Of a stretch of DNA of 64,000 nt, positions 16,428 to 25,162 are shown one piece after another. Within the stretch, counting starts at the first letter, position 1; every line of letters starts with the position of its first letter. The notes beneath the pieces are model-generated. The model had not been told where the DNA came from. It saw only the letters and a list, made by a program, of their open reading frames with translations, and searched no databases. The stretch covers positions 11,265 to 75,264 of the forward strand of contig JBAQQZ010000070.1 of NCBI GenBank assembly GCA_049295615.1. Reading direction: 5' to 3'. The stretch is from Patescibacteria group bacterium. GTDB taxonomy: Bacteria; Patescibacteriota; Patescibacteriia; 2-12-FULL-60-25. A program made the translations under genes and the position numbers.

Positions 16428-16820
16428 TTAGTAGACTTCGCAAATGATCTCGCCGCCGAGCTTGCGCTTGCGGGCTTCTTTGTTGGTCATGACGCCGGCC
16501 GAGGTCGAGACAATGGCGATGCCGATGTCGGACAACACGCGCGGCAATTCACCGGCGCCGCGGTACACGCGCAGGCCAGGCTTCGAGATGCGCTTGATGG
16601 CGCGGATCATCGGCTCTTTGCCGTTGTACTTCAAGGCGACGGTGAGCGTCTTCTTGCTGCCTTCGGCGCTCTCGGCAACGGCGCCGACGAAGCCTTCGCG
16701 CTGCAGGATCTTGGCGATCATGAGCTTCATGCGTGAGGACGGCAACGCGACCGTCTCAAGGCGGGCGTCGTAGGCGTTGCGGATGCGGGTCAGGAAATCG
16801 CTGATGGGGTCGGTATGCAT
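16428..16820 (-). CDS. rpsH: 30S ribosomal protein S8
   Basis: DPISDFLTRIRNA...GGEIICEVY. Confidence 0.93.
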   Translation of the reverse strand: MHTDPISDFLTRIRNAYDARLETVALPSSRMKLMIAKILQREGFVGAVAESAEGSKKTLTVALKYNGKEPMIRAIKRISKPGLRVYRGAGELPRVLSDIGIAIVSTSAGVMTNKEARKRKLGGEIICEVY

Positions 16821-22632: not shown

Positions 22633-23235
22633 TTAGACGCTGCGGATCTCGATGATCGAGTTGCGGGCGCCGGGGACGGCACCTTTCAAGGCGATCACGC
22701 CGTTATCGCGCAGTTCGACGACCTCCAAATTCTTGACAGTCACGCTCTCATCTCCCATGCGGCCCGGCATGCGGCGGCCTTTCATGACGTGTTGCACGCC
22801 ACCGGCGCCGATCGAACCCGGCATGCGCAGCTGGTCCTTGTGGCCGTGCGAAGCGGGATGGCCGCGGAACCCATGGCGCTTGACGACGCCTTGGAACCCT
22901 TTGCCTTTGGACACGCCGCTCACGTCAACCGTATCACCGGCCGTGAACGTCGCAGCTTCGATGGTGTCGCCGCGCTTGAACGAGGCAACGTCGTCCACGC
23001 GGAATTCGCGCAGCACGGTCAGCTTGGGGAGGTCTTTCAAATGCCCTTCTTTGGGACGCGACATTTTTCGCGCCGGAAGGAACCCGACTTGGACCGCGAC
23101 GTAGCCGTCAGAGTCCTTGTCTTTGACTTGCGTGACGACACAGGGGCCCGCTTGCACAAGCGTAACCGGAACCACCGTCCCATCGGGGCGGAAGACCTGT
23201 GACATCTCGAGTTTTTTCGCGAGGATGAATTTCAT
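22633..23235 (-). CDS. rplC: 50S ribosomal protein L3
   Basis: MKFILAKKLEMSQVF...GKGFQGVVKRHGF. The longer ORF extension into the spacer was rejected. Confidence 0.93.
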   Translation of the reverse strand: MKFILAKKLEMSQVFRPDGTVVPVTLVQAGPCVVTQVKDKDSDGYVAVQVGFLPARKMSRPKEGHLKDLPKLTVLREFRVDDVASFKRGDTIEAATFTAGDTVDVSGVSKGKGFQGVVKRHGFRGHPASHGHKDQLRMPGSIGAGGVQHVMKGRRMPGRMGDESVTVKNLEVVELRDNGVIALKGAVPGARNSIIEIRSV

Positions 23236-23593
23236 AACTCGATATGAATGAGAGCTGACCTCGGACGATTGGTCCACCGGGGCGGACATCGCCGTCTTCC
23301 CAATTAGGCGGGAAGCAAAAAGCCAGAAGCCTGGTTGCGTCCTTGAAGACACGAACAAGCTTCTGGCCTCTCTGCGAACACGAAAGGCTTTCTGATTTGG
23401 GGAAACCGGACGGTGGCCGTGCACTGCAGGGAGGTTATGCCAGTCTCACTTCGCGGTGAGGTTTATCCCGACGCTGCGTCGGGAAAGCAACTTACTCCTT
23501 GGGACGAACCCGTTCGGGTGCGGAGCAGCTCATGCGCTCTGCCGTTCTTCCGACACTTCGGAGGGACGACGGAGCGCACAAGGCGCTCGGGAA
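23236..23593 (-). promoter_or_regulatory. Unclassified structured spacer (candidate leader/attenuator or ncRNA) between rpsJ and rplC
   Basis: 358 nt with no credible ORF in an operon whose other junctions are 0-12 nt. Several GC hairpins, including a 9-bp stem (23322-23330/23359-23367) followed on the minus strand by TTTTT. Confidence 0.4.
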
Positions 23594-23941
23594 CTACATT
23601 TTGATTTCGACGTCCACGCCGGCCGGGAGGTTCAACGAAGTCAGGGCTTCGATGGTCTTGGCGTTCGGGTCCATGATGTCGACGATGCGCTTATGGATGC
23701 GCATCTCGAACTGTTCACGGGCGTTCTTGTGGACGAAGGTGGAACGGTTGACCGTCCACTTCTTCTTTTCGGTTGGCAACGGGACAGGACCGACCACGCG
23801 CGCACCCGTGCGTTCCGCCGTATCGATGATCGTGCGGGTCGACTGGTCGATGATCTTGTGGTCAAAGGCGCGGATCTTGATGCGGATGCGGGACGTGGTG
23901 TCCTTGGCAGCCGCAGCCTTCTTGGTCGTGGTGTCGGTCAT
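23594..23941 (-). CDS. rpsJ: 30S ribosomal protein S10 (short Lys/Ala/Thr N-terminal extension)
   Basis: [43 protein letters not shown] stop. Confidence 0.95.

Positions 23942-23971: not shown

Positions 23972-25162
<1,191 letters not shown>

Follow-up and report, generated by a model that had tools for sequence, protein, structure and literature searches.

The spacer of 358 nucleotides (nt) between rpsJ (ribosomal protein S10) and rplC (L3), on the minus strand of a 64,000-nt stretch of Patescibacteria DNA (the window, by which the whole stretch is meant), contains a conserved RNA element. The RNA is single-copy and non-coding, is structured with covariation in its helices, and ends in an intrinsic terminator that covaries as well. 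The best reading of these properties is that the element is a real, strongly conserved and undescribed leader-attenuator RNA, belonging to the known class of ribosomal-protein leaders. It is very likely an attenuator RNA, whether regulated or leaky. That it acts in cis by sensing a ribosomal protein, its candidate ligand, and thereby controls the super-operon headed by rplC (S10, spc and further genes) is given a probability of roughly 0.6.

Conservation of the rpsJ-rplC element

In the window, and in each of the 128 related loci from which both genes were recovered, the element is located between rpsJ and rplC. The first 30 relatives compared, which belong to the window's family or to one of 7 further families of the class, all have a spacer between the two genes, with lengths of 150-590 nt. 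After the addition of 92 further loci, both flanking genes and the spacer were present in 129 of 130 loci, and the median spacer was 283 nt; at the exceptional locus L3 was not found in the piece fetched. A protein search with S10 recovered its orthologues in 39 of 41 relatives. The block common to the relatives reads CCAAGGAG-(U/A)AAGUU, continues with either one hairpin or a two-hairpin junction, and closes with AUAACCUCCCUG.

A covariance model of this core, R1, was built from the sequences of 24 relatives and produced 99 matches when searched on 100 of these loci. It has one match each in 121 of 127 genomes of the same family (103 of 106 among the high-quality ones), and in 401 genomes sampled across the class its matches are confined to the window's family and one other. 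No exact copies of the motif were found elsewhere in the genome or in its 23S ribosomal RNA (rRNA).

A wider sample of 90 genomes from the phylum has rpsJ and rplC adjacent in 62, with a median spacer of 153 nt and 40 spacers of at least 100 nt. A hairpin followed by a run of at least four U is located 13-56 nt before rplC in 30 of these 40 long spacers, and the internal-loop motif described below occurs in two of them, against 0.1 expected. In the bacteria compared from outside the candidate phyla radiation (CPR), the rpsJ-rplC spacers are mostly shorter than 100 nt. Thus a terminator-bearing leader between rpsJ and rplC seems to be common in Patescibacteria, and the sensor described here is typical of the window's class.

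The minimum free energy of the spacer is -155.4 kcal/mol, compared with -121.1 +/- 6.3 kcal/mol for 100 dinucleotide shuffles (z = -5.48), none of which is as low. The spacer is non-coding: its lengths in 129 relatives are evenly split among the three classes modulo 3, the conserved core has stop codons in most frames, and the open stretch upstream of rplC ranges from 1 to 88 codons among relatives, which shows that this extension is not conserved. A small protein hidden in the spacer, whose lengths would then be multiples of three, was rejected on these grounds. In the window the rplC frame stays open for 63 codons further upstream, to a GTG at 23424, and gene callers could wrongly call an L3 of 263 amino acids; the conserved N-terminus of L3, MKFILAKK, begins at 23235.

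The spacer has no counterpart in Rfam 15. At gathering thresholds only tRNAs were found in the window and nothing in the spacer, and an E-value search of positions 23150-23700 (E <= 10) gave only a chance microRNA match with E = 3.8. A literature search found no description of a Patescibacteria rpsJ-rplC leader.

Anatomy and covariation of the core

The core (Table 1) consists of a helix, P1, an asymmetric internal loop, and a second helix, P2, which opens into a three-way junction carrying hairpins A and B. In the alignment of 99 matches, 8 of the 12 specified pairs of P1, P2 and the loop-closing position show changes on both sides. The cells of the core are paired in 90.6% of cases, against 84.6% after shuffling and 33-60% in slid controls, and none of 500 shuffles reached the observed values. 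Among the exchanges are those of GGAG/CUCC for GAAG/CUUC in L163 and L027 (L numbers are labels of individual sequences), of the loop-closing U-A for C-G in L224-228, and of an A-U pair in lower P1 for U-A or G-C in L220 and L165. Several members have A-U, U-A or G-C in place of the single A.C mismatch of P1. In the loop, A-A-G and A-A-C are present without variation in all 99 sequences.

The stem of hairpin A is maintained with different sequences in the relatives. The GCGA loop of hairpin B is invariant in the alignment and in all 57 distinct members that possess two hairpins. In about 40% of the family members a plain hairpin replaces the junction, and these are referred to as the single-hairpin subtype.

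The AAGGAG/CCUCC strands of P1 resemble a Shine-Dalgarno sequence and its complement, but a mimic of that pairing, or a ribosome-binding site for a small open reading frame (ORF), was rejected: P1 becomes GAAG/CUUC, AAAG/CUUU, AGAG/CUCU or GGUAGG/CCUACC elsewhere, and there is no conserved ORF. The likeness is incidental, because other lineages carry the same loop on an unrelated P1.

These results bear on an initial annotation of the spacer, which was made without database searches. It had described a gap of 358 nt without a credible ORF between genes otherwise closely spaced, and the gene coordinates, length classes and core stops agree with this; the neighbouring gaps are indeed short (30 nt between tuf and rpsJ, 5 nt between rplC and rplD), and the later genes are tightly packed. 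All of the hairpins that it listed, including a terminator-like 9-bp (base pair) stem followed by a run of T, were found at the stated positions in the sequence; the latter is a hairpin with five T at 23321-23317, and this terminator covaries in the relatives. Two findings with which the annotation had been prepared to give up its proposal did not materialize, as the junction proved to be a conserved, covarying element instead of variable junk, and no small conserved protein gene lies in it. The search for ribosomal-protein leaders in Rfam that it had suggested matched no such family in the spacer. The part now seen to be conserved had not been singled out, namely the WAAGNU/AWAAC loop closed by CAAGGAG/CUCCCUG (23501-23427), together with the loop-loop complementarity to the hairpin next to the terminator.

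A portable internal loop

In other families the same loop is mounted on unrelated P1 helices (UAAAG/CUUUA, AGAG/CUCU and CGAAG/CUUCG). Furthermore, its strands are swapped in others, for example L049, L051, L055, L058 and L061, which read GGUAGG-UAAC-hairpin (CCC...GGG)-AAGUG-CCUACC, so that the other helix is closed by the hairpin loop. The ability to be mounted either way round is typical of protein-binding loops that have been copied from internal loops of rRNA, and is much less expected of a small-molecule aptamer. Far outside the window's family, in another class of the phylum, L267 and L269 read UAUUU-AAGCC-CGUC...GGCG-GAAAC-AAAUA, the same module, here closed by a C-G pair and with GAAAC as its 3' strand.

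This portability bears on the possibility that the element resembles a riboswitch and senses not a ribosomal protein but something else, such as a small molecule (an alarmone, for example), a metal ion or a lineage-specific factor. The architecture is aptamer-like, with a three-way junction preceding a terminator and a long-range loop-loop contact, and the failure to match Rfam would suit such a sensor too. It is nevertheless quite improbable, since the invariant part is a small internal loop that survives both the loss of the junction in the single-hairpin subtype and the swap of strands, which is unusual for aptamers and usual for protein sites; the place in front of ribosomal-protein genes also suits autogenous control.

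Several known motifs were compared with the loop and rejected. Its sequences do not fit the usual consensus of the K-turn, the loop E/sarcin-ricin motif or the UAA/GAN motif. Likenesses to H28, H101 and the H97-98 region of 23S rRNA and to helix III of 5S rRNA, judged by eye, are too weak, and the organism's own rRNA does not conserve them. When the 23S sequence was scanned permissively for the two loop strands flanked by complementary segments, nothing beyond scattered chance combinations appeared. The 23S rRNA gene itself (G000:C69:44508-48112, L032) has 3605 nt, compared with the 2925 positions of the model, and thus has insertions that add up to about 700 nt. The phylum commonly has introns or expansion segments.

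The terminator and its probable link with the sensor

The terminator was recovered in an RNAalifold consensus of 33 relatives, and 15 of its 23 pairs show compensatory changes. A strong hairpin with a U-run of at least four is present in 96 of 129 spacers, compared with 34 of 129 shuffles and 28 of 129 reverse complements; the assignment of terminators is based on this U-run criterion and the alignment result, and looser finders, with which 83 of 129 shuffles also scored, were not used. The terminator begins a median of 55 nt after the core.

Hairpin P4 stands just upstream of the terminator. A stem of at least 5 bp flanks UCGC in 44 of 52 members, and its mean length is 6.0 bp, compared with 3.9 bp for shuffled arms. 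Hairpin B and P4 have complementary loops, GCGAA (23454-23450) and UUCGC (23378-23374), respectively, and the relatives have GCGAW and WUCGC in these places. The 4-bp core GCGA/UCGC does not vary among the 57 distinct two-hairpin members, and the flanking positions covary (A-U/U-A/C-G and C-G/G-C). The loop-loop cells are paired in 81.7% of cases, against 75.8% after shuffling (a value as high was seen in 0 of 500 shuffles) and 20-39% in slid controls. A contact between the loops of hairpin B and P4 is probable, and P4 together with the loop-loop complementarity links the sensor to the terminator. In the single-hairpin subtype, GGCGAU and AUCGCC form a local hairpin within the terminator instead.

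The positions of promoters suggest how the downstream genes are transcribed. The only nearby promoter-like site in the window is in front of tuf, and the window scan found none after the terminator, between 23236 and 23316. Within the window's family, promoter-like sites upstream of the motif occur in 14 of 123 leaders and 14 times in shuffles; with no enrichment over shuffles, a promoter inside the spacer was rejected for this family. The terminator stem ends 3-4 nt before the ATG of rplC in six relatives, which leaves no room for a promoter, and in some relatives the U-tract directly adjoins this ATG. As the terminator abuts rplC and no promoter is enriched, the essential downstream genes depend on read-through from the tuf promoter, and this dependence makes the terminator an attenuator by necessity, regulated or not.

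The same facts weaken the idea that the element is a trans-acting small RNA, released from the 3' untranslated region of the tuf-rpsJ transcript by the terminator, with only incidental read-through into rplC. Small RNAs of this origin exist in other bacteria, and a highly structured element between a stop codon and an intrinsic terminator would be a suitable source of one. However, with no promoter enriched upstream of the motif, none after the terminator in the window, and the terminator abutting the rplC ATG in six relatives, essential genes rely on the read-through. Other lineages (L066, L028, L106) have a promoter at the start of the spacer, so that the element is a 5' leader there. The genome contains the core only once, and no complementarity resembling a target was seen. 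The chance that the element is such a small RNA is accordingly put very low.

The promoters of these other CPR lineages, found right after the rpsJ stop in L066, L028, L106 and L104/L073, are of the sigma-70 type and near consensus (for example, TTGACA-17-TAGAAT). In these lineages rplC heads its own transcription unit with a 5' leader, which in L066, L028 and L106 is an element of the same kind. Some of these promoters are preceded by a separate rpsJ terminator.

A simpler explanation of a terminator in this place is that it is constitutive and partial, and that it fixes the ratio of the highly expressed tuf-rpsJ message to the ribosomal-protein genes downstream without sensing anything, the conserved helices serving the stability of the messenger RNA (mRNA) or its processing by RNase. 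EF-Tu is needed in excess over ribosomes, a terminator-like hairpin precedes rplC in 30 of 40 long spacers across the phylum even without the motif (2 of 40), no conserved antiterminator was found, and a long RNase III-like hairpin follows rpsJ. On the other hand, a passive terminator has no need of an invariant 11-nt loop kept in 121 of 127 genomes, and would leave the strand-swapped loop of other families and the loop-loop complementarity with P4 unexplained. Moreover, a step-down in favor of EF-Tu is expected between tuf and rpsJ, not after rpsJ. A fixed step-down is thus thought unlikely.

Table 1. Coordinates of the genes and RNA features discussed (positions in the window).
Feature	Position	Strand	Description
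tuf	23972-25162	minus	upstream of rpsJ
rpsJ (ribosomal protein S10)	23594-23941	minus	from the ORF list; gene upstream of the RNA element
rpsJ-rplC spacer	23236-23593	minus	358 nt
Long irregular hairpin	23523..23588	minus	directly after the rpsJ stop; centroid fold; both arms with palindromes of the GAGCGC(U)C type; accessory and variable
GAGCGC/GCGCTC hairpin	23588-23572	minus	listed in the initial annotation, position confirmed
Conserved core	23427..23501	minus	from R1 matches, alignments and pair counts
P1	CAAGGAG 23501-23495 with CUCCCUG 23433-23427	minus	one A.C mismatch
Internal loop	UAAGUU 23494-23489 opposite AUAAC 23438-23434	minus	consensus WAAGNU / AWAAC, asymmetric
P2	GCU 23488-23486 with GGC 23441-23439	minus	opens into the three-way junction
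Junction hairpin A	23466..23484	minus	TCCCGACG/CGTCGGGA, equal to UCCCGACG-cag-CGUCGGGA; sequence and length variable
Junction hairpin B	23445..23460	minus	CUCAC-CGCGAA-GUGAG; loop GCGA 23454-23451, then A23450
Hairpin P4	23366..23388	minus	GCCUUUC/GAGAGGC, loop UUCGC 23378-23374; 3' arm shares 2 nt with the start of the terminator stem
Intrinsic terminator	23317..23367	minus	stem 23367-23322 (GGCCAGAAGC...GCUUCUGGCU), -27.7 kcal/mol; U-tract 23321-23317
Terminator stem arms	23367-23359 and 23330-23322	minus	GCCAGAAGC/GCTTCTGGC, then five T 23321-23317
Tail	23236..23316	minus	poorly conserved; hairpin CUUCCC/GGGAAG 23315-23296; GACCAAUC box 23274-23267
rplC (L3)	22633-23235	minus	ATG at 23235; heads the downstream ribosomal-protein cluster
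rpsH (S8)	16428-16820	minus	inside the cluster behind the element

Proposed mechanism

By combining these observations it is possible to outline how the element might work. Transcription would start at the tuf promoter and proceed through tuf and rpsJ into the leader, which would fold into a sensor made of P1, the invariant asymmetric internal loop and the three-way junction. A ribosomal protein present in excess over rRNA would then bind to the internal loop and shift the frequency with which the polymerase stops at the terminator. P4, when stabilized by its kissing contact with hairpin B, could weaken termination, as its 3' arm claims the two nucleotides with which the terminator stem begins, next to the U-tract. 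The frequency of termination would set how much transcription reaches rplC and the following genes, which number 20 or more. S10, which doubles as the transcription factor NusE, would escape this control. Ribosomal-protein leaders commonly make use of conditional terminators and of rRNA mimicry (PMC7247131).

The neighborhood of the S10 (NusE) gene also calls to mind a site of processive antitermination, at which S10/NusE with NusB, or another factor, would be recruited for reading through the terminator and the long operon. The element directly follows the gene for this factor and directly precedes the terminator and a cluster of about 14 kilobases (kb), and a factor made upstream could gate the read-through. 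Yet the leaders contain no boxA-like sequence, they share no words of 10 nt or longer with the regions upstream of 16S in five relatives, save one unrelated 11-mer, and the conserved loop is held within helices, unlike the single-stranded boxA. A Nus-factor site is for these reasons highly improbable, and a protein-sensing attenuator is preferred.

Two competing pairings were considered. The initial annotation had suggested a long-range pairing of CCGTCGTCCC (near 23560) with GGGAAGACGG (near 23300), and this was not confirmed and is not conserved: in the predicted fold the 5' segment is part of the long local hairpin 23588-23523, and the region after the terminator is unconserved among relatives. 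An antiterminator formed by CCUCCCUGC and GCAGAGAGG can make 8 of 9 pairs in the window; it was rejected as a by-product of purine-rich and pyrimidine-rich arms, and it is not kept in L004 or L007.

Comparison with known leaders and candidate ligands

The L4-interacting RNA of Lindahl and Zengel, which is the leader of the S10 operon in E. coli and gammaproteobacteria, is in E. coli an L4-responsive attenuator (reviewed in PMC3616713). The two systems both place a structured RNA before rplC-rplD-rplW-rplB and later genes and have an intrinsic terminator as the attenuator, and in both variable accessory hairpins precede the conserved functional ones. The Patescibacteria element probably works in a similar way. 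The E. coli leader, however, precedes rpsJ, whereas the present element follows it and leaves S10 uncontrolled. There is no detectable homology of sequence or structure between them and no Rfam match. The internal loop, three-way junction and loop-loop contact have no counterpart in the account of the E. coli leader that was consulted. Upstream of rpsJ, where only 30 nt separate it from tuf, no homologue of the E. coli hairpins HD-HE was found.

A candidate L4 leader of Archaeoglobi, located upstream of rplC-rplD-rplW-rplB, was likewise found by comparative genomics, and its ligand was inferred from gene context (Eckert and Weinberg 2020, PMC7247131). It shares with the present element the position before these four genes and the manner of discovery, but comes from another domain of life and has another structure. 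Rfam 15, which presumably includes the candidates of Eckert and Weinberg, gave no match to the element.

By position and precedent, L4 and L3 are candidates for the ligand. The suggestion in the initial annotation that an L4-type or other ribosomal-protein attenuator has moved to the S10/L3 junction thus holds up in so far as a conserved, covarying RNA ending in a terminator is found there; homology to the L4 leader is not seen, given the lack of an Rfam match, and nothing marks L4 as the ligand. The other possibility raised there, of an unrelated non-coding RNA embedded in the operon, is less likely than that of a regulatory RNA.

Among the ligands considered, S8 gives the best partial structural match, and its binding site, which occurs in helix 21 of 16S rRNA and in the spc operator, was compared with the leader by means of the features listed in PMC4176348. 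In each, two helices enclose an asymmetric internal loop whose nucleotides are odd in number, the strands running from the G-C pair to the next (upper) helix have the same lengths in both, and the leader shares the two invariant adenines of the 5' strand (columns 12 and 13). A pair like G597-C643 is present, as G in column 14 pairs with C in column 166 in 97 of 98 distinct sequences, and the next two positions of the 3' strand are invariant A, which provides a nucleotide in the place of 641 for a triple; column 165, the equivalent of A642, is A in 99 of 99 sequences. The 3' strands read AUAAC, AAAAC or GAAAC in the leaders, compared with GAUAC in E. coli rRNA, and one CPR spacer (L063) reads AAGUC...GAUACU, like helix 21 of E. 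coli, the sequence of which was confirmed. The S8 gene, moreover, lies in the controlled cluster (16428-16820). These likenesses make S8 a possible ligand, although a tentative one.

There are also differences between the two. The W-A-A of the leader is a bulge, and the register of P1 is confirmed by the GAAG/CUUC swap. The spc operator of E. coli acts on translation at the start of rplE, not through a terminator before rplC. In relatives from the family (L230-L234, L236), helix 21 of 16S rRNA reads GUGCGUC...GAUACGGC, which is a Thermus-type S8 site with G595.(C596-G644). The 16S rRNA of a sister family (L235) has GGUAAGUC...GAUACUG, of the E. coli type with A595.(A596-U644). The 16S rRNA gene was not found in the assembly from which the window comes (78 contigs, rated 98% complete).

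A number of points weigh against an attenuator that senses a ribosomal protein, and against S8 as that protein. Termination, read-through and regulation at the terminator are deduced from sequence. No conserved antiterminator competing with the core of the terminator was found, and the overlap of P4 with the terminator amounts to only 2-3 nt. Members of the single-hairpin subtype have the motif without P4, and the flanking loop-loop pairs are formed in only about 55% of members. The shuffle controls for covariation do not account for phylogeny. As regards S8, the base triple A595.(A596-U644) or G595.(C596-G644) is missing from the leader, where the final G of GGAG is paired with the nucleotide that follows the equivalent of C643, and position 644 has no partner. 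The position of U598-A640 is mostly U.U in the leaders and otherwise C/U, G/A, A/A, C/A or U/G. The leader has AAG, compared with GCGUC...GAUACG in the family's own 16S rRNA; the two share the G-C pair and the A-A-C part, and not the 5' GC. The motif is so small that a likeness to several rRNA sites can arise by chance, and weaker likenesses to 5S helix III and 23S H28 were seen.

A bolder version of the proposal would make a single protein-sensing attenuator, placed after rpsJ, the master feedback switch of a fused S10-spc-(alpha) cluster of more than 20 genes. Such a switch would take the place of the three circuits that E. coli runs separately with L4, S8 and S4, and would leave S10/NusE out. 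Its sensor would be a portable loop, possibly a mimic of the S8 site, which evolution has mounted anew in one orientation or the other, and in the window's family it would be coupled to the terminator by the kissing contact with a hairpin overlapping the terminator base. This combination is speculative, and the odds are clearly against it as a whole.

Other parts of the locus

The window belongs to a 1.13-megabase Patescibacteria assembly, and the nearest named relative of its S10 is that of a Candidatus Uhrbacteria metagenome-assembled genome. Behind rplC follows a packed run of minus-strand genes (rplD, rplW, rplB, rpsS ... rpsH, rplF (L6), rplR (L18), rpsE (S5), rplO (L15), secY), and the downstream cluster as a whole extends over about 14 kb with 20 or more genes.

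Long hairpins similar to the one that follows the rpsJ stop, with GGAGCGCUCC, are found in L002, L005 and L006, and other genera have different long hairpins or none. Some relatives build long hairpins from short direct repeats, which are UAAAGUC units in L008 and GGGUUAGC units in L016; L027 is a further case. The hairpin after rpsJ is possibly a 3' stabilizer, an RNase III or other processing site for the tuf-rpsJ mRNA, or a small mobile hairpin element.

In the tail of the spacer, a box GCGACCAAUCCGA (in the window GGACCAAUCG, 23267-23274) is located between the terminator and rplC in L011, L014, L017, L019-L021, L024, L043 and L057. In many relatives it stands 2-5 nt before the rplC ATG, and a Shine-Dalgarno sequence is not evident there. 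The box may act as a signal for the initiation of translation, or as one more binding site.

Significance

Feedback leaders of ribosomal proteins are well studied in E. coli and Bacillus. To our knowledge, none has been described for the CPR, which makes up a very large share of bacterial diversity, is uncultivated, and has tiny genomes and unusual ribosomes. Ribosomal-protein leaders that contain an attenuator are a known kind of device, and the surprise is in this respect moderate. The element can serve as an annotation marker, with one copy per genome between rpsJ and rplC, and is a candidate for a new Rfam family. It also offers a compact and strongly conserved candidate RNA-protein module, which can be tested with recombinant proteins and without culturing the organisms. 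If the proposed reading is true, a single switch placed before a super-operon of more than 20 genes would coordinate the synthesis of ribosomes in these bacteria.

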